Made by a program: the position numbers and the translations under genes. Source: Nemertoderma westbladi (taxonomy: Eukaryota > Animalia > Xenacoelomorpha). From it: a stretch of 64,000 nt of DNA. The notes below the pieces were generated by a model. That model saw nothing but the letters and a program-made list of their open reading frames with translations, searched no databases and had not been told where the DNA came from. Of the stretch, positions 9,593 through 43,668 are shown in pieces. Each line of letters begins with the position of its first letter. Position 1 is the first letter of the stretch. The stretch is from contig JAUCBJ010007908.1 of NCBI GenBank assembly GCA_032718475.1, positions 31,626 through 95,625 on the forward strand. Direction: 5' to 3'.

Positions 9593-10140
9593 TATCGTTC
9601 GGAGTGGGCGTGTGACTCTATTATTTTATATTATTTTATTATTTTTATATTTCTGTATGTATTACTATGTAATTTTATTATAATCGTTTTATTTAATTTA
9701 GTAGAATATTATTTAGCGATTATTTAGTAGAATAGTGCAATATGTTCATGTTATTGCGTACGTAATTACTTATATTATATTTAGTGTGACGGTGAGAAAC
9801 AAGTGTTTTTCTCTTTCCTTACTGTCCTGTCCGTATTATATTATAAATACATAACTACAGTCAGATGACATGTCCGTACTTATTAAAGTACAATAAAGCC
9901 ACTACTATATTTAAGTATTATTGGTAGGCAGAGTATTAGGAATGCAAAGTTCAGATCCTCGTGTCTCGGCTAAACCAAGCTCTGGGTAGACCTTGGAAAC
10001 GACTTGCCTCTTCACACTGACATTGCTTCGTGCGATATTGCTCTCATACCGTATATTAAATAATACATATAGTAGCGTGATGTCCCTTTAACAGTAGCGT
10101 ATAACGCAAAATAAATCTGTTAAACCCTTTGACCATCTGT

Positions 10141-11293: not shown

Positions 11294-11594
11294 TGTTAGA
11301 TTATGTATTGTTAGGGTTCTAGTAGACCCTGGCTTGGTGGTGGTTAGATCCAACCTACTGGTCTTTTACCTACCGGTCCTCTTCTGGTATTCCGGTATTC
11401 AGTCTTTCCTATCTTCTAGGTCTGTAGGTACAGTAACCGTTACCGGTACCTACTGTACTGCTGTACTGATGTGCTGTAAGGTGGTGGGTGTGTTCGTTGG
11501 TCTGTTGGTTCATATTATTGTTTGATATGCTGTTCTGTATGTCGACCATTAATAAACTGATGCAGCTGGTATTCATTTATTTCCGATCCCAATA
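11294..11594 (+). repeat. Gypsy 5' LTR
   Basis: TGTTAG...CCCAATA, apparently identical to 15785-16085, contains AATAAA. Confidence 0.95.
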
Positions 11595-11605
11595 TGGCGC
11601 AGTGA
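11595..11605 (+). promoter_or_regulatory. Gypsy primer-binding site (probably tRNA-Ser type)
   Basis: TGGCGCAGT directly follows the LTR; TGG is complementary to the tRNA CCA end. The Ser assignment is recalled from tRNA 3' ends and was not checked. Confidence 0.65.
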
Positions 11606-11770
11606 TGTACTTGATGTTCCTACAACCCTATTCAAATGGTGGACATTCCAGCGCATTCAGCAGGTCAGATAATTAAATATTATTCTACCGGTCGCCTCTA
11701 CTGATTCTGATCTAGGCCTAGCTACCTACCTATACTTCTGGTGGTGTACCTACTCCAGTACTCTTCTAAA

Positions 11771-11929
11771 CTAAGCCCTTGGGACGGACAGTGGAGTGGC
11801 TCGCGGTTATCGTTGTCGTTGTGTAGCTACATCGTTGGCGAAAAACACAGCGACGACGGTACATCGGCGCTGAGGACCTTGCACTGTCCGGGGGCCGTGA
11901 GGGGTAGGCAGCGACGCCCGCTAGCCTAA
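11771..11929 (+). other. Conserved structured RNA element, copy b (Gypsy 5' leader)
   Basis: Homologous to 11039-11200; the 17-bp stem tatcgttgtcgttgtgt/acacagcgacgacggta is fully paired including G-U pairs. Confidence 0.75.
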
Positions 11930-12128
11930 TTATAACTACCGGTACCTATTCAATTCACATTCAGCAGTCAGGCGGTATTCCAGTCTGCCAGTATTCGATA
12001 ACTACAGATTTTGGCTGATTTGCATGCAAAAGTTTTGCACATTTTTGCAAAATTTTTTCTTTTCGGATTTTGCAAATTTTTTCGGATATTTAATTTCCTG
12101 AAATTTCTCTAATATTCAACAGTCAGAT

Positions 12129-15100
12129 ATGCCTACTAAAGCTGAACTCGAAACCGAACTGGAGGTTTTAAGAGAACAGTTGGCTGGTCGTGGTAATCCT
12201 GATCCCACCTCAGCTCTTCTACATGCTTTAGTTAAATCACAACGCGATTTGGCTGATTCCTTAGCACAATCCCAAGCCCAAAATGCCCATCAATTTCAAC
12301 AATTACTTGGTCAACCACATCAACCTGTAGTTCATCAGGCTGACTCAACCCCTCGTAATCTTCAAATTAAAGCACCAATTGCTTTAGAACCGGATTTCAG
12401 TTTAGCAAAATTTGAAACTTGGAAGTCGGTTTGGACGGATTATTATTCTGCATTTCAGATGGATAGAATGGCTAGGGATAGGCAAATCTGTATTTTCAGG
12501 AGTTACCTTTCTATAGGTATGCGCTCTACACTGGAACAAGTTATTGACATTCCTCCTGACACACATGATAATCCTTTAACAGTTCAGGTGTTAATAGATT
12601 GTATTCAAAGTTATTTTCGTGGTAAACGGAATATAGCCCTTGATTGTGTTCAGTTTGATAATAGGAAACAACGTCAAAGTGAAAATTTTGATAGCTACCT
12701 GGTTGCTATTAAAGATCTTGCTCGAGATGCTGATCTATGTCGTCATTGTTTCGATCGGCGGTTGACTACTCTAATTATGTCTGGTATTTCTTGCGAGGAC
12801 ACCAGATCTAAACTTCTTGCATTGACTCCATTTCCATCGCTTGAAGATGCTGTAAATCTTTGTAGGTCTGAGGAATCAGCCCAAGCTGGAGTTCAGGATT
12901 TAAAAAACCCTTCAATCAACCAAGCTTCTCGACAATCCCGTTTTCACAACAAAAAGCCTTATAATTCCAGGCGCAACAATTCTTCTAAATCCAATTCCAG
13001 AAACAATTCTTCAAGTACTGGCCCTATAGTTTGTTATGGTTGTGGTAAAACAGACCATAAACGTGCTGACTGTCCAGCAAGGAACAAAGATTGTTCTTAT
13101 TGTGGCAAGGAAGGCCACTTTGCCAGTGTTTGTCGGTCTAAACCAAATAATTCGAATTCATCTTCAAAACCTAAGATAAAACCCATTAGCCGCATCACCC
13201 TCAATTTGGTTGGAAGCCATAATCGACAAGCTCCGAAAGTATTTCTGAACTTCTGTCATATCGCAACAGGACATTTATTCGGTTCTCTCAAAGCAACTCC
13301 AGATACTGGTGCTGAGGCCACTGTTGCCGGCTTAGATTTTCTTCAGGCCCTTTCTATTGACAAAGAAAATTTACTTCCACCAGACCATGATGATCTTTCT
13401 GCTGCTAATGGTAGTCTTCTTTCATGCATTGGTCTCCTCCACACCACAATTTCCTATGGTGAATATTCAACTGATGAGCTTATCTGCATTTGTGAAGAAG
13501 TCAATGGAATTCTTTTGGCATGGTATACTTGTCAAAACCTAGGAATTATTTCAAGTTCATATCCAGAACCAGTGGCAGAAATTCAGTCTGTTGCTTCTTC
13601 TAATTCTTCTAATATGTCACCAATTGGTATTAAAAACTCAATTCCAACAACATCATTCAAGGTTGACTTCCATCTTTCTGATGAACCTTCGCCTTCAGAA
13701 TGGGATACTGTTAAGCAGAAACTCATAAAGGCTTATTCTGATGTTTTTGACCAAGATGACAAACTTCGTCCAATGAATGGCCCACCCATGACCATTTCAT
13801 TAAAAGATGATGCCCAACCATATGCTATTCATACAGCCAGGCAACTTCCTTTAGCCATTAGAGACTGGGCTAAAGCTCGCTTAGAGAAAATGGTTGAACA
13901 AGGTATTATTTGTCCAGTTCTGGATAACGAACCAACTGATTGGGTCCATCCTTCCGATATCACTTCTGATATCACTTCTGATATCACTTCTGATATCACT
14001 TCTGATATCACTTCCGATATCACTTCCGATATCACTTCTGATATCACTTCCGATATCACTTCCAATATCACTTCCGATATCACTTCTGATATCACTTCTG
14101 ATATCACTTCCGATATCACTTCCGATATCACTTCTGATATCACTTCCGATATCATTTCCGATATCACTTCCGATATCACTTCCGATATCACTTCTGATAT
14201 CACTTCCGATATCACTTCTGATATCACTTCTGATATCACTTCCGATATCACTTCCGATATCACTTCTGATATCACTTCCGATATCACTTCCGATATCACT
14301 TCCGATATCACTTCCGATATCGATTCCATTCCAGACGCACTTTCCCGTGCCCCTGTTTCGGATCCTACTCCAGAGGATATTCTTTGTGATACAGATGTCA
14401 ATGACCATGTTTCCGCAGTCATTCGTCACGTGTCTACCTCAATTGTTGTTTCTGATGCTCCAAGTCATCTCAAGGATTCATATATTGAGTCTATCCGATC
14501 ATCTGCAAAGGATGATATTTCTTACATGGCTTTGGTGGATGCTGTTATTTCTGGATTTCCCTCAACATCCACACAATGTTCTGTGCACATACGCCCATTC
14601 TGGAATGTGTGACATCAGTTATCTTGTGAAGATAATCTTCTTTTATTAGGTTCCCGGATTGTAATTCCATCTTCCCTCCGCAAGAATGTCCTGAAGCACC
14701 TTCATGATGCTCATCAGGGCATTGAACGTTCTAAGAGGATAGCTAGGCAAACTGTATTCTGGCCTGGTATCAATAGCGATATTACAAACATAGTCAATTC
14801 TTGTCCCCAGTGTCAACTTTATCAACCAAGTTTACCTAAAGAGTCTCTCCAAAGCGAACCTCATCCATGTCTTCCAATGGAGGATTGCTCTGCTGATCTT
14901 TTCTACTTCAGCACCTGGTCATACCTGGTTTATGTCGATAGATATTCTGGGTGGCCATGCGTTCATTCTTGGCGTGCCGATCCTTCCAGCTCTCAAGTTA
15001 TTTCAGCTCTTCGAGGATGGTTCAAAGATTTCGGTATTCCAAAACGCCTTCGTTCTGATGGTGGTACACAATTTAATTCAGCACGTTATCATGATTTCTT

Positions 15101-15713
15101 ATCCGAATGGAATATCATCCCTGAGTATTCTACTCCTGAGTATCCTCAGTCTAATGGCCATGCAGAGGGGGCTGTAAAGGCCATGAAATCATTGATAAAA
15201 AAGTTAGATGTCGAAGGAGATCTAAACTCTACTTGCTTTGTTCGTGGTTTGCTGGAATGGAGAAATACTCCTAAAGAACATGGTATGTCTCCAGCTCAAC
15301 TGTTGTTCGGTAGATCCCTCCGTTCTACTATACCAGCTCATTCATCCACACTGGCAGGTGATTCATTCCCTATCCCTGGTCCTTCAACGTCTTCAGCAAC
15401 TGAATCATATTATAATGATCATGCTCACGACTTAACCCCGATTCCTATTGGTTCCCGAGTTTGCATCCAGAGTGCACATTCCAAACTATGGAACAAATCT
15501 GGTATCGTCCTTTCCCGTGGTACTAGGCGAGATTACCGGATAGAACTAGACAATGGTCGGGTGTATTGGAGAAATCGTCGTTATCTACGTTCCATCCCAG
15601 ATGACTCTTCTCTTCGTGATATAACGCCTCAAAAACATGTACAGTTCGCTGATGATCTTCCCAGGCGCAGTTCGAGAACTCACAAGCAACCAGCAAGATT
15701 CGGAGTTCAATGA
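12129..15713 (+). pseudogene. Gypsy gag-pol (Gag with two CCHC knuckles, protease, integrase); RT/RNase H absent; in-frame TGA at 14610-14612
   Basis: CYGCGKTDHKRADC and CSYCGKEGHFASVC; protease DTGA; integrase HHCC (LHDAHQG...CPQC) and D-D-E core (ADLF, SDGGTQF, SNGHAEGAV). ORFs 12129 and 14877 share one frame. Confidence 0.92.
13951..14321. repeat. 12-bp tandem array (CTTCYGATATCA, ~31 units) in place of RT/RNase H
   Basis: Read directly; translates as (SDIT)n between WVHP and SIPDALSR. Confidence 0.95.
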
Positions 15714-15784
15714 ACTGACCTATTGGTGGTGGTTGGATTTTTTTTTTTCAGTACAAATGTCTCCTACATTGTTCTTGGGGGAGA

Positions 15785-16085
15785 TGTTAGATTATGTATT
15801 GTTAGGGTTCTAGTAGACCCTGGCTTGGTGGTGGTTAGATCCAACCTACTGGTCTTTTACCTACCGGTCCTCTTCTGGTATTCCGGTATTCAGTCTTTCC
15901 TATCTTCTAGGTCTGTAGGTACAGTAACCGTTACCGGTACCTACTGTACTGCTGTACTGATGTGCTGTAAGGTGGTGGGTGTGTTCGTTGGTCTGTTGGT
16001 TCATATTATTGTTTGATATGCTGTTCTGTATGTCGACCATTAATAAACTGATGCAGCTGGTATTCATTTATTTCCGATCCCAATA
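15785..16085 (+). repeat. Gypsy 3' LTR
   Basis: Matches 11294-11594 and is followed by the TSD TATAC. Confidence 0.95.
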
Positions 16086-16824
16086 TATACCCTACCTTTA
16101 CAAGCGTTTGTCGATAGCTTGATACGCGGCGACGCTGATCCAACTACTACGGAGGACGATGGTCGTTATATCGAACCGCCAATGTCCCAGGAGCAACTTA
16201 CGCGTGAATTGGACTATAGAAAATTCACTGCTCGCTATACGCATCGTAATGGTACGTATCTGGACTTCCTGACTACTGGTCATCCTATTGATTTACACGA
16301 CACCGACGAGGTTGACACCGAAAGGGAAATGGTTTTATTTAAATATCATACCCAGCGGAGTCGAAACGACAAATCGAGAATAGAACACGAGAACTCTATT
16401 CGAAATCAACTCGAAGGATAGAACGTGGAAGAAGGTTGATGCGGACAAATAAAGGAGAACCACTGGAGAAGAGACATGGGTTAATGTCCAGGGTCCATAA
16501 TGTGAATAGTTTTCCCCGGGGCACGGGTGCTCGCGGGCGGTCTCCTTCGGGAGGCTGTAACTTTCTCTTCCTTCATCGTTTTCCTGTAATTATTGTGATC
16601 AGTGTCACAATTAAAAGGCAAGAATGAATGATGATGTGACGGAAAACACATCCATTGTGGTATCTCATGGATACTATCGTATATCCTCCCTCCTCTCTAC
16701 TCCTCTTACCCTCTTATACGTTGTTACTAAAGATACGACATATTTCGTCCCACCTTCTCTTCCCAACGTGCTCGGAGCTTCGGGAAACGAGCACTAAACC
16801 TCCCATCCCTTACTATTAATCTGG

Positions 16825-16985: not shown

Positions 16986-17340
16986 TCTCGTTGATGATTG
17001 GATAATCAACCACCAAGGATTTCCTTAAATCCACAACCGTGATACAAGGACTGAAAGGACACGCAGTTAGTAGGTGAACAACTGGTACCATTGTGTGTCA
17101 TAAATATGGTTGTTCACCTCCCTCAATGATTGGAGATATAAATCTTATAATCTGTAGAACAACTGAGGCATTGAACTGGTTGTTCCCTCATCGCACTGGG
17201 GATAAATTCAGTTGGAGATAGTCCTCGAATGTTACAATCCTCCTACTGAGATCGTATTTCTGAATATTTAGAATGCGAAATAGTTTTTTCCTCTGCTCTA
17301 CCATCGCTGTCGGAGAACATATTAGGCATACAACAGGAAT

Positions 17341-19116
17341 ATGGAGAACATTCCATACCCTTTCGTTGATACTCAGCTGATTGCTCCTTGGGCCGAAGGC
17401 CGAGGTTTCTTTCGCACTATGTATGCCCATACACCCAGCGACATTACTAAAGTACAACGGACATCCATCGGACATCTTGCCTTTCAAGAATATGGATGGA
17501 ACTTCAAAGTTGGAAATCCTATCAATTACCAGCAAGTATATGGAGATCATTACTCTCGTTTATATTTTGATGGACCATTAACTGCGCCTGGTGCCGTATA
17601 TAGCTTTATGAGTGTTCCACTTCGCCCTTCCTTAGCTATATACACGATCTTTGAAAACGCAGCACTTGCCGGTTGGCTAGCCGATGTGTGCAGTCGTACC
17701 ATACGCGCTCACCCATTAATACTTGGAACTAAACTCGCCAAGTTAGACGAACACAATAAGTTCATACGTTTCGAATGTTTCCGGCGCTTTCTGACTCCGT
17801 TCCGTAACGTCGATAGTCAGTTCAAGGACCGCGCGCTGACCAAGCTCAGTCTGAGAGACTCAGCTGCGGAGAAACTGAGTAGCGCTGGATTTGCCGTTTT
17901 TCAAGACGTTTGTATACAGAACTTACATTCATCTGTTATACAAAGACCCCGAATACCTACAGGTTATTCTGTCGTGGAAATACAGACAGTGGATCCACTT
18001 ACTGACACAGACGCACCCACTTCGTCTATACAGCTGGAGGATGAACCAGTATGCTTGGAATCAGAAGCGATTCAGCCTACGGCTTCCCGGAGCAGTGACA
18101 CTGATTATGTCATAGAGTGGTATCAAGGTCCACAACGTCTCACAGCGTACGATTATCGACACGCCAACTACGTTTCTCGAAAACGTTGTCGATTATGCGC
18201 ATCGAGAGACCACTTCACCCCTCTAGACTCGAGCGTACCTTGTTCCTATTTCCTCGAACAACCGATGATGGAAATATATTGTGCTTATTGCCGGCTTAAT
18301 AACTCTCATATTTTTGCCGTCTGCCCACAATTTATGACTCAATGTCACTACTGTCAACTTAAAGGACATGAAAGTTACAATTGTCCCTTTAATCGCGATT
18401 TAGAGAGCGTAGACGAGATGATCACCCTGCGATACATCCGAGCTTGGGAAGCGAACGCAGATTTACATTGCGAATCCCGACATCGCTATTACCCTGGACG
18501 AGCTTACGAGGGAGTTTACGCGTTCCATCCTTATCTATTCGCGTCGATTGAACAGAAAACACGCGTACCAAGTTACGAGTTAATGAAGCGTGTTGGTGAG
18601 TGTATTTCCACCAAGTTTGTCAGAAAATACCTTAGAAACGTTAACCCTAATGATATAACCACATATCACCTGATCAATTTTATCCGTCAGGACCCTGAGT
18701 ATGGCGACATCTTTGTGAACTCGCATCCTGAACTACAGGAAATATCTCGGCGACCATATGAATATCGAACCCGAGAACGCGAGCTGGAGAGAACCATTAA
18801 ACCGAGAAAGTTCCTCACCACTCACGGTCCACCCACCGCTAGTGTCCAGACGACCCGTCAAGGACCCGTAGGAGCTGCTGTCCTGAGACGCGCTCTAAAG
18901 GCCGTTAGACCTCGCTCCACTGAGGTTGATATTAATCAACCAGGTACTTCGACCGGCGGGTATACCGATCGTAACCCTACACCTTCTGATGCAATTGTAT
19001 TGCACCCTTCGCCTCGGAGCTACAGCCCTCCTCGTAAAGTGGCTCGCCCCAAAGAGAAAAGGACTCTTGCTGGCCTCGGGAAACTGCGTAAACGCCGTCC
19101 GCGTAAGAAAGACTAA
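17341..19116 (+). CDS. BEL accessory ORF3, 3' part: 591-aa zinc-knuckle protein with basic C-terminal tail, function unknown
   Basis: Long open frame ending just before the PPT; CRLCASRDH, CAYCRLNNSHIFAVC and CHYCQLKGHESYNC (CX2CX4HX4C); ends KLRKRRPRKKD. The same C-terminus is at ~36500-36655. True start is uncertain. Confidence 0.7.
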   Translation: MENIPYPFVDTQLIAPWAEGRGFFRTMYAHTPSDITKVQRTSIGHLAFQEYGWNFKVGNPINYQQVYGDHYSRLYFDGPLTAPGAVYSFMSVPLRPSLAIYTIFENAALAGWLADVCSRTIRAHPLILGTKLAKLDEHNKFIRFECFRRFLTPFRNVDSQFKDRALTKLSLRDSAAEKLSSAGFAVFQDVCIQNLHSSVIQRPRIPTGYSVVEIQTVDPLTDTDAPTSSIQLEDEPVCLESEAIQPTASRSSDTDYVIEWYQGPQRLTAYDYRHANYVSRKRCRLCASRDHFTPLDSSVPCSYFLEQPMMEIYCAYCRLNNSHIFAVCPQFMTQCHYCQLKGHESYNCPFNRDLESVDEMITLRYIRAWEANADLHCESRHRYYPGRAYEGVYAFHPYLFASIEQKTRVPSYELMKRVGECISTKFVRKYLRNVNPNDITTYHLINFIRQDPEYGDIFVNSHPELQEISRRPYEYRTRERELERTIKPRKFLTTHGPPTASVQTTRQGPVGAAVLRRALKAVRPRSTEVDINQPGTSTGGYTDRNPTPSDAIVLHPSPRSYSPPRKVARPKEKRTLAGLGKLRKRRPRKKD

Positions 19117-19194: not shown

Positions 19195-20424
19195 TGTAAA
19201 AGCCTTTGCTGAATTGCCCCGTTATTTTTATTATCTTTTACATTAAAATACTCTGTAGTTGATTTAATAGGTGTAAGAGACCGTATTATTGCTGTATCGG
19301 TGTTTTTTAGAGGATCTAAGAGCTATTTCCTCCGTATGTGTACTGTGAAAGGCATAGTTGATGATTCTATGGCAATTCGTGACGCAATAGGTGATAGCTA
19401 CTCTTGAACAGTAGTTACTATGACTACGGTTAACAGCTGATATTCATACGTGTTGATTTTCTTTGTTCTACGGCATCTCTCAGTTCAGTCAGCCAATCAG
19501 AGCATTTTTATGGCTCTTGTACAGAGATTTCCTAGAAATCACTCAATGCATTATAGGCAGTGTTTACATTCTGTCCTGAGCCAGGAGAGAGCGGCTTGGA
19601 AATATTTTGTGCTTTTCTGTTTTAGCTTAACACTAGTAGGCTTAATTATAAGGACATATATCCGTTATCTGATGAACTAAACATAACTCAACTTAACAAA
19701 CCATAACTGACTGATGATCTGCATGTACCACATACCTGTGCATACGTTTATATTGTTATACTGCTATTTACTGTCGGTTCTTCATAATATGGTTGATGAA
19801 TTATTATATTTGGAATAACGATAAATAACCCCGAAAACCCAATATTCTTGATATACCGAAGGTAAGAGAGAAAGGTTACATATAACGATTGTGACTTATG
19901 TTAAAGTGGTTTGAAGTGAATCTAATGTTATTTGATAGACCCTACATGAGTCGGTCCGTGTTCCTTTTATATGTGGCTAAAATCAGTGAAGATCGGCAGA
20001 TCAGTGTGCAGTATTGTGCAGCATTGTGTATGAGTGAGTCTGATAACGAAGCATTTCCTAAAGAATGCGCCATATATGTGAATTATAACTAAGCCATATC
20101 GTTGTGAGTAGTTTAAGTCATAACTCTGTTTATATAGATAGAGCGCCACGTCCTAAAGGAACTGTTAATATTCCCCGAAGGTGAATAATATTGTCAGAGA
20201 TTATATAATACTGTCAGTCGAATAATACATTAAGCTTACATAGCAATAAGATTAAGCCGTCGAACCCAATCTCCCGGGTATATCCAGCGGGTGAATGATC
20301 GCGCACAGATTGGTTTCGACTAGTGTAGTGAATTAAATACTTGTCATAGGCTAAAAGTGATTTATTATCTAGAAGACATCCTAATTTGGCGGGTTAAACT
20401 GCCAAAGGTCTGAAAGCGCGAACA
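19195..20424 (+). repeat. BEL copy 1 3' LTR
   Basis: TGTAAAAGCC...GCGCGAACA, homologous to 22332-23534 and 36734-37933. Confidence 0.95.
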
Positions 20425-22331: not shown

Positions 22332-23534
22332 TGTAAAAGCCTTTGCTGAATTGCCCCGTTATTTTTATTATCTTTTACATTAAAATACTCTGTAGTTGAT
22401 TTAATAGGTGTAAGAGACCGTATTATTGCTGTATCGGTGTTTTTTAGAGGATCTAAGAGCTATTTCCTCTGTATGTGTACTGTGAAAGGCATAGTTGATG
22501 ATTCTATGGCAATTCCGTGACGCAAAAGGTGATAGCTACTCTTGAACAGTAGTTACTATGACGACGGTTAACAGCTGATATTCATACGTGTTGATTTTCT
22601 TTGTTCTACGGCATCTCTCAGTTCAGTCAGCCAATCAGAGCATTTTTTATGGCTCTTGTAGAGAAATTTCCTAGAAATCAGGCAATGCTTTATGGTGCAG
22701 TGTTTACATTCTGTCCTGGGCCAGGAGAGAGCGGCTTGGGAATATTTTGTGCTTTTCTGTTTTAGCCTAACACTAGTAGGCTTAATTATAAGGACATATA
22801 TCCGTTATCTCAAACCTTACTTACTGACACTGCATACTGTGTAACACTGTGCATACTTTAAACTGTTATACTGCTATTTACTGTCGGTTCTTCATAATAT
22901 GGTTGATGAATTATTATATTTGGAATAACGATAAATAACCCCGAAAACCCAATATTCTTGATATACCGAAGGTAAGAGAGAAAGGTTACATATAACGATT
23001 GTGACTTATGTTAAAGTGGTTTGAAGTGAATCTAATGTTATTTGATAGACCCTACATGATTCGGTCCGTGTTCCTTTTATATGTGACTAAAATCAGTGAA
23101 GATCGGCAGATTAGTGTGCAGTATTGTGCAGCATTGTGTATGAGTGAGACTGATAACGAAGCATTTCCTAAAGAATGCGCCATATATGTGAATTATAACT
23201 AAGCCATATCGTTGTGAGTAGTTTAAGTCATAACTCTGTTTATATAGATAGAGCGCCACGTCCTAAAGGAACTGTTAATATTCCCCGAAGGTGAATAATA
23301 TTGTCAGAGATTATATAATACTGTCAGTCGAATAATACATTAGGCTTACATAGCAATACGATTAAGCCGTCGAACCCAATCTCCCGGGTATATCCAGCGG
23401 GTGAATGATCGCGCACCGATTGGTTTCGACTAGTGTAGTGAATCAAATACTTGTCAGAGGCTAAAAGTGATTTATTATCTAGAAGACATCCTAATTTGGC
23501 GGGTTAAACTGCCAAAGGTCTGAAAGCGCGAACA
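22332..23534 (+). repeat. BEL copy 2 5' LTR
   Basis: About ten differences from the 3' LTR by eye; CCAAT motif at ~22631 and TATAA at 22787. Confidence 0.96.
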
Positions 23535-23545
23535 ATAACGGATAT
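23535..23545 (+). promoter_or_regulatory. Non-tRNA primer-binding site candidate ATAACGGATAT, complementary to LTR 22798-22808
   Basis: Directly abuts the LTR end, lacks TGG, and is the exact reverse complement of ATATCCGTTAT in the LTR. Confidence 0.65.
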
Positions 23546-23818
23546 TGCTTCTGTATTGCAGTAGGCAATAAAGCTGAAGTACCGGCAACCGGTACCCAGT
23601 AGGCCTGACTACCTAACCACCCGGACCGGTACCTACAGCAGTACAGGTACAGCAGTATTATTCGATTTTGATAATTATATACCGGTAGGCCTTAATAATT
23701 AATCAGGGACTGCAGCCCTGGTTTTTTATTGAGATTTTTACTTATTTCTGTCAAGTTTTATTTGTTTGTAGGCCAGTATTGAACAGAAGGCGTGTAAGCC
23801 TGATCAGATTGTACAGAC

Positions 23819-24390
23819 AATTTGTAGGCTGAGCTGTTGTCTGATTGTTGTTAAGTCTGAACGGATTGCAGTGTGTGTAGATCACCTGTCCGATAAAGAA
23901 CGGTTAGGAAGTAGGGGCAGCCAAAGCTGTAAGGTAAACCCCCAACTAAAGAATAAGTCGTACTACTGGGTTAGAACGCATACTACCTAATCATTTCGGA
24001 GTCTGCATGTCCTGTAGTTTATTTAGGCTTGAGAGTAGTCTGCCATCGTTTAGTCTGTACTTTGTTTGTGTAGTCTGTACAGGTAGCGTATAATATTTAT
24101 TTAGATAATTTGTAGGCTGGATAGTTGTCTGGCTGTTATTAGGTCTGAAGGATTGCAGTGTGTGTAGAGCCTCTGTCCGATAAAGAACGGCTAGGAAGTA
24201 GGGGCAGCCAAAGCTGTAAGGTAAACCCCCATCTAAAGAATAAGTCGTACTACTGGGTTAGAACGCATACTACCTAACTCATTTCGGAGTCTGCATGTCC
24301 TGTAGTTTATTTAGGCTTGATAGTAGTCTGTCAGTATTTGGTCTGCATTTTGTTTGAGTGGTTTGTACGCGTAGCGTAATATTTATTATT
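23819..24390. repeat. ~287-bp tandem duplication in the BEL 5' leader
   Basis: cgtactactgggttagaacgc at 23959 and 24246, with homologous flanks. Confidence 0.85.
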
Positions 24391-25707
24391 CAGAGTTTAT
24401 GCGATTATTCGCAACATTCATTCCCCAAGTTTGTTCCTACAATAATTGTGTTTGTTATACATACCGCTATAGTTAAATTAACCCCGGTACTACACGGGCT
24501 GCTTGGCGTAGGTAAAGACTGGTGATTTTGTGCACCGGTCACTCCAGCAGATGCCGTGGTTCTTTTAGCTGTTCAAGTATATTTAACTACTGATTATCTG
24601 TTGTACAAGTACTCGTACCTAATTTAGGGTTTAGTGTACAGTGCTTTCCGAAAGTAATTAGTGTAGGCATTATATTTGTGTTGTAAAGTGGTTGATAGGC
24701 ACGTTCGATTAGCTCTATTAACTTCTAGGTAGGAACACTCCGTGATACATAACGTAGTACCTATAGCGATACGGCTATAGGTCGTCAGGCGGTGGTATTT
24801 TCCTATCTGGACAACGCAGTGTATTTACTACTACGTATTATTTTCAAATACCGCAGTACCCTGTCCGTTGTAATAACCAGAATTCTAACCCTTTGTTAGG
24901 CTGGTTTGTAGACTTCTTGTAAAATTACCCTGAAAATTCGTATTTTGTGTTTTTTGTAAATTTTTGTGTTTATTTAGAGATTGTAATCTCAACCCGAATC
25001 GTACGTAATTTGTAGTATTAAGTAACTTAGGTAAATTAGAATTATTTGTTTTAGTGTCCTATAAGTAACACTTCACTGAAAGCGCACCGCTTTGTGTAGT
25101 GATTACTCCCCAGAAATAATAACATTTATTTCAAACATTGACAAAACCCATTAAAACGGGTATATATATATTATAAATCAAATCTAACGATTTATAAATA
25201 GTAGGCCTACCATACAACCATTAGGTCTCAATATCAGTTGGATTACTGCTCAAATAACAGTATAAAGTAAGTAAAGTAACCAAGTAACCCTAAAATTCAG
25301 GAATTCAATTATTTAAAATAATTGATATACCGGTATTTACGATAGGCCTATTATCTTTATTTCTATAAATTTAGGCTGAAATTATACCGGTACTTGTAAT
25401 TAATTCTAGTCCAGAATTATATATACTACAAACTGTAAGCTGTATACCGGTATTCCCGATAGGCCTATTATATATTTATATATATTTGTGCTAAAATTAT
25501 ACCGGTATTCTGTGATAAACCTAGTCTGTAATAATACTTATATAGTTATATATACTATAAGCATACCGGTATTCTAATATATTATATATATCACGCTACA
25601 CTGAGTAGCAGTACCGGTAATTAATTACTAGGCTAGCAGTTAACTCTGAATTACTAGACTTGCTTAAACTGTAATATAGCAGTAGGCATTCAACTGTGCA
25701 AACCAAC

Positions 25708-28700
25708 ATGTCTGATACTAAACAGAACCTGTCAGACAGTTTATTAGATGTAACTATCTGCGACTCAGATAGAGGCGTAGAACCGTCTAGTCGTAAGTTC
25801 AGTTCACCTCCCACTGTGAGGAAGGTCATCCCTCCTGTAGTAATAACAGAACCTAGGCTGGTCCAACATCGTAGGTCTATCATAGGCACTCGAGCTCAGG
25901 TCAAGCGGGACCAAGAAGCAGCAGAACAGCAACAACCCGCGAGCCAAGAACTTACTTCTCAACGGCCCAACAGCTCCAGTAGTGAGGATACTGTAGAACT
26001 GACACCAGAACGCGGAGCAAAGATGATGGATGCGGTTTATTCGGATCCCCTTCTCATCCTTCCTGCAGCCGTACTCACTAGGTTATTGATTGCGGTGGAA
26101 GAACACCAGATCGATTGGGCGAGAAGTCAGCGATCAACTAGAGATAGTTATGCGGGATACACGAGGGAAGAACTGAAGTCTATTGTCGAGTCGCAATGGA
26201 ACTTCCCCGGACCCGGACTCCCGTTTGATTTATCAGAAGCTGCCTGGGAAGACATACACCGGATGGGAGTAGCCAAGGAAACCATCGATCCAGCTGTGTG
26301 GAAGAGGTCCGCAGCCGGATACGCACAGGGATTCTTCAGCTCTATGGAGCGAGTAGAAAAACAACTGTTACAACAACCTCAAGGACCTCAAGAGTGGGGA
26401 CAACTGCTTTATCAAGTTAGAGAAAGAATTCTGCGAATTAGGCTAATATTATCAGCCTTTGAAGAGGCTTCTAAAAGAAGACAAGACACGTCGTTGCAAG
26501 TTGCCGTAAAGACTTGGTTTCAACGGGTGAGTCGCCAGGTTCAAGGAACAGCTCAGTGGAAAGATCAGCTGGAGGAGCGCTCAACCCATGGAGAATCAAC
26601 AGACGCTACTTTTTCCCAAGTGGAAAGTGAAGCGACGGCAGAGAAACCGCATAAGAGGGATGCCATTGACATCTATCTGTCAGACTATCAACGTTTTGTA
26701 GGAGATGAAGAGTTGAGGAGAAGGTTAGCGGGACTTAGTCCTAATAGTGAAGGAGCCCAGCGTGTGTTGGATGCAATTGATGTGGATAGGTTAGCGGCGA
26801 ACCAAGCTAAATTCGATGAACAACTCCGCATCGCTAGAGACCAAGAAGAAAAAGTAAGGAAAAAACGTATAGAAGACAGAAAGATAGCAGCAGTGGCAGA
26901 GGCAGAAAGAAAAGCGACCTTGGCAGCGGCAGCAGCAGAAGCAGAGGCAGAGGCAAAAGCGGCAGCAGCGGCAGCGGCAGAGGCAAAAGCGGCAGCGGTG
27001 GCGGAAGCAGAACGGAGAGCGGCTGAAGAGATCGCCCAACTGGAGTTGGAAAATCTTCAAGAGAAGCAAGACGACTTCAGTAAACAGTTAACAGCTAGTA
27101 ATATGCAGATGATGAATCGATCTACTCCCAAAAGACAGGGTTATACATCATCTGAGGAAGGCGATACCACCGACACTGAAGGCGGAGGAAATCGATCTCG
27201 CCTAAGCAGACGTAAAAGAACATTCCACCATCAGAAATTGCCTGATTTGCCTCCAGCTGTTAGAAGGCAACTAAATAACACCAACTTAGCGAGTACAGAA
27301 CCCACAGACCAAATAATTACAATAGAGAGACTCCCTACTATAGTAGATGAGCCTGAAATAATTAGGCCTGTTCCTGAAGCTACCCTTTCGGTCGTAGAGA
27401 CACCTGTACTCCCTGAACCTACCTCTCAATTCCCGTTGCACAGCACTAAGCTACCTGTGCCCAGCAGAACAGCCCATGAGACAGTTCATGCTCTGGACTC
27501 CGAGCGAAATATTCATGATTTGTCGCCCGTTGTCCCTCGTCCGCCCGCTACAACGTTGGCGGATCCCGTTTCGGCGGTTGATTGGGTGGACGAGAGACGG
27601 CGGGGGATGGACATTCTCCTCGGAAAGATGGAGGAGAATCAAAGGCGCTCCTCCCAACAGGTCCGAGAGTTAGAAGGGACTGTTCAACAGTTAAAGGGAA
27701 CCGTAAAGGAAAGTAGGTTAGAGTTGCAGGAAGTGCAGCAAAATATTGCACTAGAACGTGATAAATTAGTAAATTTACAAAAGGGTATACCACCACCCCT
27801 TGTAACAATGTGTCAACCTGTTAGGTCTGAAGTATCTCGTGCGCAAGGTGTGGAGCCTACACGCATCTATACTGCTAGCGAAGTAGAAACTCCTATAGTG
27901 AACCCTATTAAGGGTAATTATAGACCTGTTGATAATGATATTCCCTATAGACCGGATCATAATCCGAGAAATTTATATACCGATAACTCGATATTAAATA
28001 ACATGATGGCCCAAGAAAGTTTTACGCGTCAAATGGCTAGAACCGAAGCCCGGCAAGCGGTAAAAGTGGGAGAGATCGTCAAGTTCAATGGAGATGAGAT
28101 GAAATGGTTACCTTTTAATGAATATTACAAAGATAACATACAGAACTCTGTCCTATCTAATGGAGAGAAACTAAGATTCCTCATCGAGTGCTTGGAAGGA
28201 TCTCCCAAGTTAATGGCGTTAAAGTTTATTGGACATCCAGACGGATTAAGACAAGTTTGGGATACACTAAACATCAGGTATGGTAATAGGAATAACATAG
28301 CTGGGTATTTGTATGCAAAGTTGGTAGCGCCCCGAAAGTTTATTAGCAGCGGAATTATAGAGTTTTCCGATGAGATTCAGGAGATCTGTAGACAATTAGA
28401 TTGGCTAGGTAAGTCTCATGAGTATCAGAATGCTATGGTTATTAGAGCAGTGGCTTCTACTTTACCGAAGGGTGGAGTAGGTACACGCTGGGATAAGAAA
28501 GTGTTATATATGATGGAACAACAACGACGAGACCCTACCATGGCTGATCTCATGTCATTCCTAGATGGAGAAGTGAAATTACAGCTCCTGAAACTGTCCA
28601 GAGAGAAGACACCGGAAAACAAGGTAAGTGAAAAACCCGTCTCTAGGAGAAAGATAACACCAGTGTGTTATACAGACGACGGCGAAAGCCAGACTTCTCA

Positions 28701-31700
28701 AGGAGAAGATAGCGGGAAAGACACTGATAGATCTTATTACGTAAATAAAATGCCTAAAGATCAGGTAAGTAAATTCAAGTCTCGAACAAATGACAGGAGA
28801 GAACAGGTAAGAAAAACTCCTCCTACGTCTCCCAAGAGAATTCAGGTGAGAAAGCCCGAAGAAAAAGCAAGTGTACACAATGTGACTCAGAGTAAGGTGA
28901 GTAACATCAAACCGAAATGTGCGCTATGTGACGGGACCCATCGCTTAAATATGTGTGATGAATTTCTAAAGAAATCATTAACTGAGAGACGTGACGTCAT
29001 GTGGGATAAGCGGTTATGTTATAATTGCCTCAGACAAGGACACCAACGGCGAACCTGTTACTCTGACATAAGGTGTGCAAAGTGTGGTGCGAAACATCAT
29101 ATCTTGTTGCACGCTGAATTCGAGCGAAATAGTCCGAATCAGGTAAGTGATTCCGAACTACATGTCCAATTCAGTGATGTGAACGACACTGATCAATCTG
29201 AGATGGAAGGATTCTATACGGACGAGTTCTCCGACGAAAACGAATCCTGTTACATGATAAATACCGCAGTGTATCGAGCACTCACATATGAAAAAGATAC
29301 AGACAGCGACTTCACTCTAACTACTTCTGATCGACAACCATCTTGGAAAGAGCCATCTTCCAATGTAGGGATCCGAGAGTTTCCTGTGGTGCAGATAAGG
29401 GTTCACGGACCTAAACGGAGTTATGTAGTGAACGCCCTCCTTGACTCCGGTAGTACAGGAACATTCATCAACAAAGAGCTAGCCGAAGACATATTTTCTG
29501 GACAACCCATGTTCCGAACTAAGCTAAACATGTCAGGCATTATGCAAGTTTGGAAATCTACATTAACAGCGGATTATTATGTAGGCGCGTTGTCCACCCC
29601 CCAGGACGAACTAGGAGAACATAGCATAAGGTCAGTGAAAATGGTAGCTATAAAGAACTTCGCTACTACTCAAGCAGACCTTTATAATTGGGACGAGGAT
29701 GAGAGCATCCAACATCTTAACATACCTCGATTCCAGACTGATTATCCTGGAGTGCAAATACTCATCGGCCAAAACGCGCATGAGGCGCTGGAGACATTAG
29801 AGAAACGGCCTGCTCAACCGCAACCACTACAGATCTATGCGGTAAGAACTAGAGTAGGTTGGTACTTTACTGGCCCTTCCCGTGGAACACTCAGAGAAAG
29901 ACTACCGCAAGAGCGCGTCTGCCAGGTGAGTGAATGGGAAGATGATACTAGTGAGGGAGACGATTTAACTGAGGGAACCCCATACTCCTCAGATAACGAC
30001 GACGTTCACCAGCTTTTTGATGAGGAGAATACCATCGATCTCCTTAAGGAAAACGAGGCTTGGCAAAACCAAGTGAACTAATTCTTCAGCTAAAGAAATG
30101 TATCAAACACAGCTAGAGAAATTTATTAGTAAGGGATACGCGGAGAGAGTACCGGAAGAAACACCTGTGACTGAAAGAACGTATTACTTAACTCACCATT
30201 ACGTTCCTAAACCCGGTAAACCACATGAAGTGAGAGTAGTGTTTGATGGCTCCGCTCTTTACATGGGTCAATCCCTTAACTCTGAATTGTTACCCGGACC
30301 CAACTTACTTCAATCTTTGTTGGGAATTCTTTTAAGATTGAGACAATATTCGATTGCTTTCGCCTCCGATATAGAAGGCATGTTCTTACAAGTCAAAGTG
30401 TTAGATAGGGATCGAGATAGTCTACGATTTCTGTGGTGGCCCGAAGGAGACCTCAACCAGAAACCGGTGGAGTACTGGATGACCATCCAGGCCTTTGGGA
30501 TAATCTCAAGCCCTTCCAACGCCTGTTCGGTAGTGCGTACCACTGCAGAGGACAATCGAGAGGCCTTCTCTAAGGAAGTGATCGACAACATCAAGTGGGA
30601 CATATACATGGACGACAATCTGAAGTCCCTTCCATCAGTTGAGGAAGCCATTGAGGTCGCTAAAGGAACGGTAGAGTGCTTAAAAAGAGGTGGGTTTCGA
30701 TTAACGAAATTCACCAGCAACTCCCGTGAGTTTCTGGAGTCGATCCCTGCGGAAGATCGAGGGGCGAAAGATCTAGATTTGATCAAAGATGATCTGCCAG
30801 AAACCAAGACACTCGGCTTGAAATGGGACACAGAGCGAGATATCCTGTTTTTTCAGCTAAAACAGCGAGATAATCCAGTTCGAACCAAACAGATTTGCTT
30901 AAGTATACTGAGCACTTATTTCGATCCATTGGGATTTATTAGCCCAGTTATATTGATTGCTCGTAGTTTGGTACAACAAATGTGGCTTGAAAACCACTCA
31001 TGGGACGATCCACTTAAGGGAGAATTATTAAAGAAGTGGATGAAATGGGAAGATTCTCTGCCGGCTATCGAGGATTTTATAATTTCCCGTTCATATTTTG
31101 GTCATGTTCTCCCTACGTATTCCTATCAACTCCATGTGTTTGGAGACGCCAGCGATATGGGAATAGGTATAGTAGCCTATCTAAGAGTGGAAACTCTGGA
31201 TGGAATCAAAGTCGCCTTGGTTACTTCTAAGGCATTAATCAACAACAAGTTGAAAGTTCCTCGAGCGGAGTTAAAAGCGGCTCTATACGCTACAGCCATC
31301 GGCCGGAATGTAACAGAACAGATTGACTATCCATTAGAGAAAACTGTCTATTGGACCGACGCTTTACTCGTGTTAGAGTATATAACCAATGAAGTCTGTC
31401 AGTTCAGCGTCTTCGTTACCAACAGAGTAGCCATCATACTTAGTCGCACGACGATGGACCAATGGAGACATTGCCCCGGAACGATTAATCCAGCAGACAT
31501 CGCTTCCCGAGGAGCGACTCCAAAGGAATTGGTAAATACTCCCGAATGGTTAGGTGGACCCGACTTTCTCTACCGAGAAGAAGAAGAATGGCCTCCCCAT
31601 CTCACAACAGCAGAGATCAGACAGGCCAAGGGAGCGGAGAAAGTTAAACCCAAAACTCGAGCGAGTAAATCGAAGTTGTTTAAACCTGCGGTTGATCTAT

Positions 31701-33490
31701 CTGTATTATTTACTTCCGGAGAGGATGCTTTGGATCAGAAACCCACCGCCACGACTAAAGAAGTCTTGGAAATCCGTGACAAGGATTGGAAATCTGGAAT
31801 ACCAGATATCGCGCAAGGACTCTCACCCCTCTTGCAGAGAGCGATACGTCACTACAGCTCCTGGAATCGGCTCTGTAAAGCCGTCACCTATTTAAAACGA
31901 TGTTTTCATCATCGTTACTCCGGGACAAAGACCAATAGTGATGATGCTCCATCAACGTCTGCAAGAGTCCATGTTGTTAAAGATCTTCCCAAATACAAGA
32001 TATCCGACAGGTTTCTAAAGGAGAAGATCAGTTACCAGGAGCATGATGAAACCAACAAACAGATGCTGAGACTCCTACAATGCTATGAAGATCCCGATAA
32101 GTATTTCCTGTTGTTAAGAAATCCGCAGATGCGCTTAAGGGATCGCTTCTCGAGTACCATGATAGATGGGTTAATCCGTGTTGGAGGCAGGCTTACCAAC
32201 GCCCCATTATCCTTTGACACTAAATTTCCCATACTCATTAGAAATCTTGACATACAAATCAAGATGATTGTAGATGTTCATAGCAAACTGTATCATGCTG
32301 GAAGAGAACGAGTTCTGAGCGAAATTCGAACTCGCTTCTATTTTTATAAACCCCGTAGGGCTCTGAACCAAGTCCTTAGGAACTGCATACCCTGTAGGAA
32401 AGCATTCAGTAGGCCTTTGACACAGCGAGAGGCAAAATTACCTAGGGAAAGAGTAAGCTTCTACGAACCACCCTTTACTAATACCGGTGTGGATTTATTT
32501 GGCCCTATTGAAGTATATCGTGCCCGGACGATAGTCAAGAGATGGTGTGTCATCTTCGTTTGTATGACTTGTAGAGCTATCCATCTCGATATGGTAAACG
32601 ATCTATCCACCAACAGCTTCGTGTTGAGTTTACGACGACAGATCGCTCGTTTCGGAACCAGTAACACGATGAGATCGGATAAGGGAACGAACTTCATTGG
32701 CGCCCACAACGAAATTCAAGCTTACGTAAAGGACTGGAACAAAAGACAGGTGGACGATCAGCTAAAGATAACAGCGTCTAGCTGGACCTTCAACGCCGCC
32801 GACGCCCCTTGGTGGGGAGGAAGTTGGGAGAGATTGATTAGGAGCGTGAAGACTGCGTTCCACTTTATTGTACCTTGTCGCGCTTATCTCACCGACGAAC
32901 TATTGCGGACATTAATGGAGGAAATCGCCGCCTATCTCAACGAAAGACCGCTTATGCCAGTCTCTTCAAGTCCTGATTCCCTGGAAGCGCTAACACCCGC
33001 GCACTTTCTACTGAAGAAACCCGTAGCCATGCTCCCACGATCGGAGATCACAGACGGAGACGAGTACTGCCGTCAAACCTGGCAACTTATGCAGTTGCTA
33101 TCCCGTCGTTTCGCTGACCATTTCGAGAAACATTACCTGCCCACTCTACAACTTCGAACTAAGTGGTTTGCGCAGCAAGAAAACGTCAGCGCTGGAGACA
33201 TGGTGCTTATTGTGGACCCCGATCTCCCACGTAAGCGATGGCAAACAGGACGTATCATCGAGACTTATATCTCGAGCGATGGTTTGGTGCGATCAGTAGA
33301 ACTCGTCGTCATGCGGCGTAACTTTAAGAAACCAGGGATAGTCTTTGAGACTCAACAGCTCAACTGCCCAGTGGGTCGTTTATGTTTACTGGAAAGAGAC
33401 AGAGAGCTCTCCGGAAACTATGGAAGGCAAGAAACTCTTCCCACGACCACTTCCCTAATCCAACCGACATCTAGGGACTCCCCAACTTAA
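25708..33490 (+). pseudogene. BEL/Pao gag-pol, copy 2; open except for one ~322-bp frameshifting deletion at ~30080
   Basis: ORFs 25696-30081 (Gag-protease) and 30098-33490 (RT-RNase H-integrase). The sequence matching 5871-6192 of copy 1 is missing, with CT microhomology at the junction. Confidence 0.93.
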
Positions 33491-35137: not shown

Positions 35138-36655
35138 ATGACGGAGTTGATAGAAGATGGTCTTGGTATCAGGGAGCGATATACTCTACTTTCAAGCATT
35201 TGTTGATAGCTTGATACGCGGTGATACTAGTCCAACTACTACGGAGGATGATGGTCGTTATGTCGAACCTACGATTTCCTGGAAATAACTTACGCGTGAA
35301 TTGGACTATGGAAAATTCACCGCTCGCTATACGCATCGTAATGGTACGTGTATGGACTTCTTGACTACTGGTCATCCTATTGATTTGCGCGACACCGACG
35401 ATGTAGACACCGAAAGGGAAATGGTTTTATTTAAATATCATACCCAGCGGAGTCGAAACGATAAATCGAGAATAGAACACGAGAACTCTATTCGAAACAG
35501 ACTCGAGAGGGAAGACGTTGAAGAGCCTGATGGACGTCGCGACTTCAACGACTATCTAGAATTCCTAAGAGAGACCTATCTCAATATTGCCAGTCAACAA
35601 AACCTCGAAACTCGATATCCTCAAGGTATACATCCGGACCCTATGATGGAGCTCAAACGGCTCTATTTTGCGGTGGTGTGTCTTACCGCCAGTCGGCCGC
35701 TGCCTGTCGTTCCGGGTGGCTTCGAGCGGATGGGGGGGTGTTGTGGGGCTGGAGAGCGATCACCCGCGTTTCCCCTTCGGGGCGTGCGTCTTTGGTGTTG
35801 TTGCGATAGATGCCCTGGACTCAGCCGATAGACGGAAAGACATAAACATCCACGGAAACGTTGTGTTAAACACAGTTGTGCTTGTTATATTTACTGGAGT
35901 TTCGAGCGAAACTTGTTTGACGTATCACCTATGCTCACTCTGCTCGAACGATCCTGGAGTAAACCTACGATCAGAGTCCCGGAATACTCGGTCAAACCTC
36001 CTCGTTCCTTGGTTGGACCTCGGACCTGCGATCCTGGTGGTGTCGCGGATCCTCGCGGATTGTATTCACTGTTCAAAGATCTAGTGCTACCCTAACAATT
36101 AATCGGTAACACTCCGACAGTGATTTCTAGCTAGCCGCCCATCTTACCTAGCCGGATTGTGACGCGGACACCTAATATCACTATCCAACCGTATGGTCGT
36201 CCCCGTTTAACGCGATACAACCCTTCATCAAGGTGAAGGAGAGCGTTGTACGAAACGAGTTAAACGCTATTCTATAAAGATCAAAAAAGAAATCTGCGTT
36301 TGTTCAGATAAACGTAAGTTATAACAGTAAGTCCAATCGATAAACGAATTAGCCCTATCTCAGTTCGATTGGGAAATCTCGAATCTCTAAGAAGATATCA
36401 AGCTTAGAAAACCCTATTCTCTGCGAGAGTTTTGGACGAACGTATCCCATGACAAGCGGAGGAAAATCAGCTCGAGGAGAAGCATATCGAACTGGACGAG
36501 ACACCGACCGTAAACCCAAACCTTCTAATGCAATTGTATTGCACCCTTTACCCAGGAGTTATAGCCTTCCTAGTAAAGTGGCTCGCCCTAAAGAGAAAAG
36601 GACTCTGGCTAGCCTCGGGAAACTGCGTAAACGCCGTCCGCGCAAAGAAAACTAA
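35138..36655 (+). pseudogene. BEL accessory ORF3, copy 2, frameshifted, with a different central segment
   Basis: Starts MTELIEDGLGIRERY, shares RYTHRNGT...KYHTQRSRNDKSRIEHENS with copy 1, ends AIVLHP...KLRKRRPRKEN. Several frameshifts and stops. Confidence 0.75.
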
Positions 36656-36733
36656 CTGTTTAGAGTATCTTTATGTTTTAGAAACTGTGATTTTTATATT
36701 TTATAGACTGAAAATCCCATTTTCTGGGAGCGG

Positions 36734-37933
36734 TGTAAAAGCCTTTGCTGAATTGCCCCGTTATTTTTATTATCTTTTACATTAAAATACTCTGTAGTTG
36801 ATTTAATAGGTGTAAGAGACCGTATTATTGCTGTATCGGTGTTTTTTAGAGGATCTAAGAGCTATTTCCTCTGTATGTGTACTGTGAAAGGCATAGTTGA
36901 TGATTCTATGGCAATTCCGTGACGCAAAAGGTGATAGCTACTCTTGAACAGTAGTTACTATGACGACGGTTAACAGCTGATATTCATACGTGTTGATTTT
37001 CTTTGTTCTACGGCATCTCTCAGTTCAGTCAGCCAATCAGAGCATTTTTTATGGCTCTTGTACAGAAATTTCCTAGAAATCACGCAATGCGTTATGGGCA
37101 GTGTTTACATTCTGTCCTGAGCCAGGAGAGAGCGGCTTGGGAATATTTTGTGCTTTTCTGTTTTAGCCTAACACTAGTAGGCTTAATTATAAGGACATAT
37201 ATCCGTTATCAAACCTTACTTACTGACACTGCATACTGTGTAACACTGTGCATACTTTAAACTGTTATACTGCTATTTACTGTCGGTTCTTCATAATATG
37301 GTTGATGAATTATTATATTTGGAATAACGATAAATAACCCCGAAAACCCAATATTCTTGATATACCGAAGGTAAGAGAGAAAGGTTACATATAACGATTG
37401 TGACTTATGTTAAAGTGGTTTGAAGTGAATCTAATGTTATTTGATAGACCCTACATGATTCGGTCCGTGTTCCTTTTATATGTGACTAAAATCAGTGAAG
37501 ATCGGCAGATCAGTGTGCAGTATTGTGCAGCATTGTGTATGAGTGAGACTGATAACGAAGCATTTCCTAAAGAATGCGCCATATATGTGAATTGTAACTA
37601 AGCCATATCGTTGTGAGTAGTTTAAGTCATAACTCTGTTTTTATAGATAGAGCGCCACGTCCTAAAGGAACTGTTAATATTCCCCGAAGGTGAATAATAT
37701 TGTCAGAGATTATATAATACTGTCAGTCGAATAATACATTAGGCTTACATAGCAATACGATTAAGCCGTCGAACCCAATCTCCCGGGTATATCCAGCGGG
37801 TGAATGATCGCGCACCGATTGGTTTCGACTAGTGTAGTGAATCAAATACTTGTCAGAGGCTTAAAGTGATTTATTATCTAGAAGACATCCTAATTTGGCG
37901 GGTTAAACTGCCAAAGGTCTGAAAGCGCGAACA
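36734..37933 (+). repeat. BEL copy 2 3' LTR
   Basis: TGTAAAAGCC...GCGCGAACA followed by the TSD CTGAA. Confidence 0.96.
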
Positions 37934-42950: not shown

Positions 42951-43668
42951 TGAACCAAGTGTGCCTCCTGGGTTAGGTTACCTAACACTGGTAGAGGAGC
43001 ATCCAGTATAGACAGAGCGGGCATGTATCATCTCTATTGCAGATGTGTATCAAGCATTTGCATTCAATGGTGCCCTAGGCGCTATATCCCTCAACAGCTC
43101 AACAGCTCAACATTCCTCAACAGATACAAGGGGAGATTTCTGACAAAGCACAAGCTTCTAGTAGACTGCACTAACAATATTAGAATTCCTCGAATATCTG
43201 GTGAGGGAGAAAACTCAGTTCGCCACAGCAGTAGAGGAGAATCTACAGTGACACCAATGCATTGCCCAATGCACCGCCGACTTCCAGATGAGTTGCTGTG
43301 TTTCCTGCATCCCACTCTCCAAACAACACCTTGACTTTTCCTGCAAGAGTTCTGAGACACCCTGGCCACCTGGTGAGCTACAGTCGCCTCAGTGCACAGT
43401 CAGAGTCATGGTTGTGTGGCCCACTTCGATTTGAACCATGGCTTAAATTACTCTGCTTACTCTGGATCTGATCGTCCATGAGCAGCAGGGGACGGATCGA
43501 GATTCCAGTCTTCAGTGCGACATAGGCATTCGAGGAGCATTCATCCCATTCAGTCCTTCAGTCAGCCGAGGATAAGAAGAAACTGCAGGATGCGGATGCT
43601 GCCTATGAATGGTTCTTTGTCTCAATTTATCGTGTCGTGTGATGGTGTCCTAGTCCAATAGGATTGGA

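Follow-up and report, generated by a model that had tools for sequence, protein, structure and literature searches.

Predicted priming of reverse transcription by LTR-derived RNA in a BEL/Pao retrotransposon and in a range of its distant relatives

In the retrotransposon Tf1 the initial 11 bases anneal to the site of primer binding (PBS), with RNase H cleavage falling between bases 11 and 12 (relevant passages of PMC7175516). Self-priming is also reported, in the portions of the literature concerned, for Tf1/sushi, Tcn1 and Tj1, and is predicted for TAR copia elements (PMC7175516, PMC4600332, PMC6317226, PMC5341516). As in the element dealt with here, Tf1 and Tf2 of Schizosaccharomyces pombe, Tj1 of S. 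japonicus, Tf1/sushi and Tcn1 have, going by the parts of the accounts that describe them, an 11-nt stretch of LTR that is the complement of the PBS, and no tRNA site (PMC7175516, PMC4600332). The present element is, however, BEL/Pao, with a Pao-type Pol, and not a Ty3/Gypsy chromovirus like the Tf1 group; in comparison with Tf1 its primer is placed 730 nt ahead of the LTR end, while the primer's place at the RNA 5′ end and the cut are predictions; and, unlike the Tf1 group, BEL relatives would assemble their primer across a predicted splice junction.

Self-priming in the TAR lineage of plant Ty1/copia elements (Houba, Osr-1), which belong to another superfamily and another kingdom, was predicted from sequence by the criterion also applied here, namely at least 10 bp starting 0–5 bp past the LTR (PMC6317226, sections on priming); the element in question has 11 nt at offset 0. 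Fungal GalEa copia elements similarly have no tRNA PBS and show self-pairing at the PBS position in the account given in part of PMC5445492, but there the site is palindromic with its partner outside the LTR, whereas here the partner is inside it.

For BEL/Pao itself, the ICTV profile of Belpaoviridae names host tRNA as the primer, with an 18-nt PBS that fits either tRNA-Arg or tRNA-Gly (PMC8742986). The element shares with that description the Pao peptidase, DUF1759, DUF5641, the order PR-RT-RH-IN, 1.2-kb LTRs and a polypurine tract (PPT). It departs from it in that a tRNA PBS is absent, both here and in 13 of 16 relatives; a PBS of the ICTV type is complementary to the 3′ end of a host tRNA, and here no TGG follows the LTR. 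The sequence-only reading of this DNA knew of no BEL/Pao example of self-priming, and none was found in the full-text literature searched, a scope that left subscription journals, Repbase entries and supplements outside. In the BEL surveys PMC3118150, PMC554778, PMC6238403 and PMC8556966, look-up of the terms PBS, tRNA and priming came back empty for the text it covered; the part of PMC8220671 concerned has generic mentions of these terms only, and the parts of PMC3601003, PMC3286476 and PMC5443660 concerned hold nothing further on BEL priming.

The window, i.e. the whole 64,000-nt stretch of DNA analysed, contains two copies of one BEL/Pao element, of which copy 2 is complete, while copy 1 starts before the window, has a Gypsy insertion inside it and ends with an LTR (Table 1). 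LTR ends were set by where the three LTR copies diverge from each other, and the TG...CA LTRs, target duplication and PPT are those of BEL/Pao structure. By its Pao-type Gag and Pol domains the element is BEL/Pao (Belpaoviridae): Pfam on the copy 2 frames yields DUF1759, Peptidase_A17 (7e-35), an integrase zinc finger and DUF5641, and motifs of RT, RNase H and integrase are found in the same copy, the domain architecture being common to the element's homologues. The RT-RNase H-integrase frame of copy 2 is out of frame with its gag-protease frame, at a junction ~320 nt shorter than in copy 1.

Table 1. Coordinates of features of the BEL/Pao element in the window
Feature	Position	Strand	Remark
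5′ LTR of copy 2	22332..23534	+	1203 bp, TG...CA
3′ LTR of copy 2	36734..37933	+	11-mer at 37199-37209
3′ LTR of copy 1	19195..20424	+	11-mer at 19658-19668, then a longer, different tract
Target-site duplication, left, CTGAA	22327..22331	+	
Target-site duplication, right, CTGAA	37934..37938	+	5-bp duplication flanks copy 2
CCAAT-like promoter motif	22631..22635	+	consensus match only
TATA-like TATAAG	22787..22792	+	consensus match only; 11 nt upstream of 11-mer
Predicted self-primer, exact PBS complement	22798..22808	+	
Hypervariable tract	22809..22868	+	starts right past 11-mer; predicted strand-transfer junction, where strong-stop DNA would end
Predicted intra-LTR partner of 22779-22809	23152..23205	+	would mask 11-mer in RNA with upstream bases
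U5 hairpin	23490..23518	+	-12.1 kcal/mol; equal or better fold in 12/200 shuffles
PBS position, ATAACGGATAT	23535..23545	+	no TGG, offset 0 from LTR end
gag-protease reading frame, copy 2 (DUF1759)	25675..30081	+	
RT-RNase H-integrase reading frame, copy 2	30077..33490	+	catalytic motifs present
Polypurine tract	36726..36733	+	

Several other features of the window deserve mention. The 2.1-kb leader between PBS and gag includes a 288-bp tandem duplication (23815-24387). Copy 1 has, downstream of pol and ahead of its 3′ LTR, a 596-aa frame (17326-19116, +) with CCHC-like zinc knuckles, for which the best Atlas lead is DUF8363/zf-CCHC (0.86); a search of this frame for a hydrophobic segment found none. 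The frame is not recognisably env, an identity that was rejected. Its remnant in copy 2 (36491-36652, +) shows similarity over the last 54 codons only. The Gypsy element nested in BEL copy 1 occupies 11294-16086, with 302-bp repeats that are 100% identical and a 4-bp target duplication. Two more reverse transcriptase fragments (39709-40716, -, and 43654-44949, +) are probably from non-LTR elements, a further short-period repeat is at 47688-48476, and the last 14 kb of the window (50255-64000) is a 48-bp satellite in at least 272 copies.

The 11 nt following the 5′ LTR had been described as lacking TGG and as the exact reverse complement of 22798-22808, and both are confirmed: in a window-wide match search ATATCCGTTAT is present on the + strand at 19658, 22798 and 37199 and on the - strand at 23535-23545, with no further site in the window when up to one mismatch is allowed. 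The PBS starts on the first base past the LTR CA, and the duplex is, as had been claimed, limited to exactly 11 nt, with 22797 T opposite 23546 T at one flank and 22809 C opposite 23534 A at the other. Occurrence of the 11-mer in all three LTRs also holds, but these are three copies of one family and do not amount to independent evidence of conservation. When the LTR is shuffled with dinucleotides kept, a complement to the PBS 11-mer arises in 4 of 5000 shuffles, and in 11 of 5000 when any offset of 0–5 is accepted; among 2140 internal 11-mers, two have a complement in the 5′ LTR, the PBS at 23535 itself and another at 23655. ARAGORN finds 0 tRNA genes in the window. The nested Gypsy element of the same window has a TGG primer site, and the longest match there to its own LTR is 5 nt. 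A splice-made primer for the window element was considered and rejected, as none of 1037 junctions beats the contiguous match.

Evidence of a different type comes from distant elements. Close relatives were not found, the nearest being 33–44% identical and the best protein matches reaching 36–43%; the U5-end 23-mer gave 0 matches to metagenome contigs, and 37 candidate viral contigs included 0 relatives. Alignment of 29 Pol proteins led to 95 loci of distant BEL elements, of which the 16 with both a definable 5′ LTR end and a definable whole LTR were counted and the other 79 left out. Boundaries were given by divergence of the LTR copies in 14 (with adjustment by eye for L012, L058 and L070), via the sister locus L035 for L031, and by the contig end for L084. 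(Seventeen animal-type BEL/Pao loci, L079-L095, are in prokaryotic genome records, most likely from host contamination.) In 13 of the 16, a PBS of 10–13 nt, mostly 11, located 0–5 nt past the LTR has an exact complement in the element's own LTR, while of 272 pairings of a PBS with a foreign LTR, 10 reach 10 nt. The own-LTR match is contiguous in five relatives (L053, L058, L070, L071, L081), and in eight it exists only across a predicted GT-AG intron (L002, L005, L012, L020, L031, L044, L084, L091), a number to be read in the knowledge that the splice rule was loosened stepwise after inspection, giving 3 cases, then 6, then 8; with any GT donor allowed, seven of the eight spliced matches fall on GTAAGT, GTAAGG or GTATGT. 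In the other three, L042, L059 and L086, there is a TGG site and a 7-nt match to the element's own LTR is lacking, and the site of L059 is the motif complementary to tRNA-Met according to the relevant part of PMC5445492. Across the 14 elements formed by the 13 relatives and the window element there are 13 different last-10-mers of the primer.

Primers end in AC in 12 of these 14 and in AT in the window element and L084. For the 11 relatives L002, L005, L012, L020, L031, L053, L058, L070, L071, L081 and L091, AC is the predicted end in all 11 and the next base is C in 10; the C after the primer, in relatives and window alike, possibly reflects a cut-site preference. Extra pairing beyond the duplex, between bases upstream of the primer and bases past the PBS, is seen in 4 of 11 relatives at no more than 10 of 200 shuffles, and in the splice types the upstream exon supplies only 4–7 bases of the primer; on both counts, the relatives' primer need not be the first bases of the RNA. 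In the window element such upstream pairing is absent, 186 of 200 shuffles being as good. A second set of 12 loci lacking a fixed LTR end has 11-nt own matches in nine, with foreign matches in 4 of 132 pairs, but is not counted because its ends are not independent, two members are sisters of counted loci and some matches resemble LTR-internal hairpins.

Within the family, the sequence just past the 11-mer is where the LTRs part company. Of 73 columns differing between LTR1 and LTR2, 49 are in the 60 nt of 22809-22868 and one is in 22760-22808, and of the 11 differing columns in the copy 2 LTR pair two form a 2-nt indel, the sole multi-base one, at the 3′ edge of the 11-mer. Family contigs from four public runs (X1, X3, X4, X5), whose depth is not copy number, go across 22805-22819 from 173,869 to 15,899 to 662 in X1 and from 105,429 to 7,200 to 0 in X3. 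In each of the four runs depth collapses at 22809-22815 into many different continuations, and the loose ends at 22807-22813 differ. One X1 contig carries an insertion of additional letters beside the 11-mer, before window sequence resumes. Contig depth is also low at 22650-22755, so that 22809-22868 is not the sole variable tract. Variation directly past the duplex was rejected as a general feature of the relatives: sister LTRs of L002 have none within -15..+40, and the L031 sisters differ from +9 onward. (L031, at 9225-9615, and L029 and L035 have a short tandem array, variable in copy number, that starts right past the predicted duplex end.)

The PBS itself also varies. Among the matches listed, three of the four runs have T in place of A at 23535 and A in place of C at 23539, with shares of depth of 50% and 45% in X1, 35% and 45% in X3, and one contig in X5; X4 has neither among the matches listed. 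Self-priming predicts partner changes at 22808 for 23535 and at 22804 for 23539. Five pieces from X1, X3 and X4 stop aligning at 22807, among the matches listed, and the loose ends of X3 and X4 there start with the base complementary to the changed 23535; a substitution at 22804 or 22808 is not seen at 1% of depth or more among the matches listed, and X5 has a changed PBS, yet its single contig over the 11-mer aligns through 22810. The covariation of PBS and LTR 11-mer for which the sequence-only reading had proposed to look is therefore of two kinds: across the group it is present, the 13 relatives having different letters, while within the family it is only half seen, the shares of PBS and partner changes disagreeing.

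Consideration of where transcription starts complicates the assignment of the primer. A TATA box just upstream of the 11-mer had been noted, and the TATAAG there stands. Together with TCAAACC at 22810-22816, which we take to be an initiator-like motif, it would fit a start near 22812, past the 11-mer. Folding of the RNA gives the PBS helix a probability of 0.94–1.00 for 5′ ends at 22785-22800, and of 0.00–0.17 for 5′ ends at 22640-22780, where the helix is lost because 22779-22809 then pairs with 23152-23205, as it does in all three LTRs. Such an intra-LTR helix would mask the 3′ copy of the 11-mer and leave the 5′ copy free; 7 in 500 shuffles equal it and better pairing is found for at least 8 of 201 other LTR windows, so that it is only weakly exceptional and is kept as a lead only. 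A U5 stem-loop reportedly supports priming of the Tf1 type. The hairpin that had been pointed to at the U5 end is indeed present, ending 16 nt short of the LTR end, but it is not significant against shuffles and, as it stands, lends self-priming no added support; as a common feature it was rejected, 2 of 17 elements, one of them TGG-type, having one at no more than 10 of 200 shuffles. The long R/U5 part (22972-23482) has splice-donor-like sites at 22972, 23144, 23214 and 23291 as well as acceptor-like tracts, and spliced contigs over the LTR are not seen among the family contigs in the matches listed. A canonical poly(A) signal was not found in R/U5, the only AATAAA near the LTR being just past the PBS and outside the LTR (23567-23572).

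The element very probably primes reverse transcription with its own LTR-derived RNA in some form and not with a host tRNA, and a Tf1-like form, with the primer coming from the 5′ LTR copy of 22798-22808, is probable. A version of self-priming in which the primer instead comes from the 3′ LTR copy, or in trans from a separate LTR-derived RNA, would have transcription starting at about 22809-22817 and the 11-mer as the end of U3. That TATAAG fits a start at about 22812, being 22–30 nt ahead of 22809-22817, keeps this version alive, and the onset of the variable tract at 22809 would also fit a U3/R junction; use of two RNAs would, moreover, solve the problem posed by the eight splice-type relatives, which keep the intron in their DNA yet need it removed in the primer. 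It is nevertheless thought unlikely, given the predicted tying-up of the 11-mer within the LTR, the reasoning that cutting the 3′ copy would sever the R on which strand transfer depends, and the fact that the passages of self-priming literature examined provide no precedent.

Chance complementarity in an AT-rich LTR, for which the second internal 11-mer with an LTR complement might be cited, is extremely improbable in light of the shuffles for this element, and for the group it is excluded by the contrast of 13 in 16 own matches with the foreign pairs. Pairing that is real but structural, i.e. for dimerisation, packaging or a conformational switch, with priming by another route nearby, is improbable: the alternative partner predicted for the 11-mer inside the LTR and the extra pairing beyond the duplex in some relatives would suit it, but the matches are perfect Watson-Crick runs of 10–13 nt that start within 0–5 nt of the LTR end, the very place at which a primer has to end, and they take over from a TGG site instead of accompanying one. 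Marginally less probable again is that a small host RNA, be it a tRNA, a half-tRNA or some other, primes here and the LTR match has another cause. Priming by tRNA is what ICTV describes for the family (PMC8742986), copia lineages include half-tRNA primers that lack TGG (PMC6317226, portions on priming), and the AC with which 12 of 13 relatives' primers end could reflect a common host RNA end; against this, 13 of 14 elements have differing PBS sequences, each matching its own LTR, and variation of the family PBS at its first and fifth bases makes one fixed host primer hard to reconcile.

For the preferred Tf1-like form, the following course of events is envisaged. The 5′ LTR copy of 22798-22808 would anneal to 23535-23545, and the RNA would be cut after 22808, the candidate enzyme being the RNase H of the element's RT; RNase H motifs are present and variation begins at the predicted cut site. 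The new 3′ end would then be extended through U5 and R, stopping at 22809, and the strong-stop DNA would jump to the 3′ LTR, with errors of the jump accumulating as the variable tract 22809-22868. Changes inside the 11-mer would be purged while strand-transfer errors would be fixed at 22809. An RNA start at or upstream of 22798 would be required, and folding favours one at ~22785-22798. The central proposal of the sequence-only reading, tRNA-independent self-priming, is well supported by the 13 of 16 relatives with different letters and by the onset of divergence exactly after the 11-mer.

Its further suggestion, that self-priming was invented independently in this lineage, is not supported, since the signature is spread across most of the sampled tree. 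That tree is a quick one of 105 RT segments, with a midpoint root, without named reference elements and with L044 labelled TGG. In it the window element is on a long branch, in no well-supported group and loosely beside L084; the three TGG elements (L042, L059, L086) group together (SH-aLRT 87), and self-matching elements are scattered over the rest. Clustering of splice or contiguous types was sought and not found, 337 of 500 and 130 of 500 shuffles being as low. Self-priming, whether with a contiguous or a spliced primer, looks to be an old trait in this BEL group. A more comprehensive scenario is that a large aquatic BEL/Pao branch dropped tRNA in favour of two interchangeable primer routes, contiguous or spliced LTR, and that in the window element the 3′ copy is helix-masked and the 5′ copy free, with the tract past the 11-mer being a running log of strand-transfer errors from which the cut site can be read to the base; taken as a whole this is less likely than not.

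The feature is real and non-random, and likely represents self-priming in a superfamily described as tRNA-primed, in a variant common to a wide group. The reference description of BEL/Pao is host tRNA priming, and self-priming has so far, in the parts of the literature consulted, been a matter of chromoviruses and one plant copia lineage. The window element offers predictions at the level of single bases, namely a cut after 22808 and paired changes at 22804/23539 and 22808/23535. If the proposal is true, annotation tools that require a tRNA PBS miss or misjudge such elements, and the elements would presumably be freed both from dependence on tRNA supply and from silencing directed at tRNA sites. 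Self-priming would then be common in a third superfamily, and in animals, which would bear on the issue of whether tRNA priming or self-priming came first.
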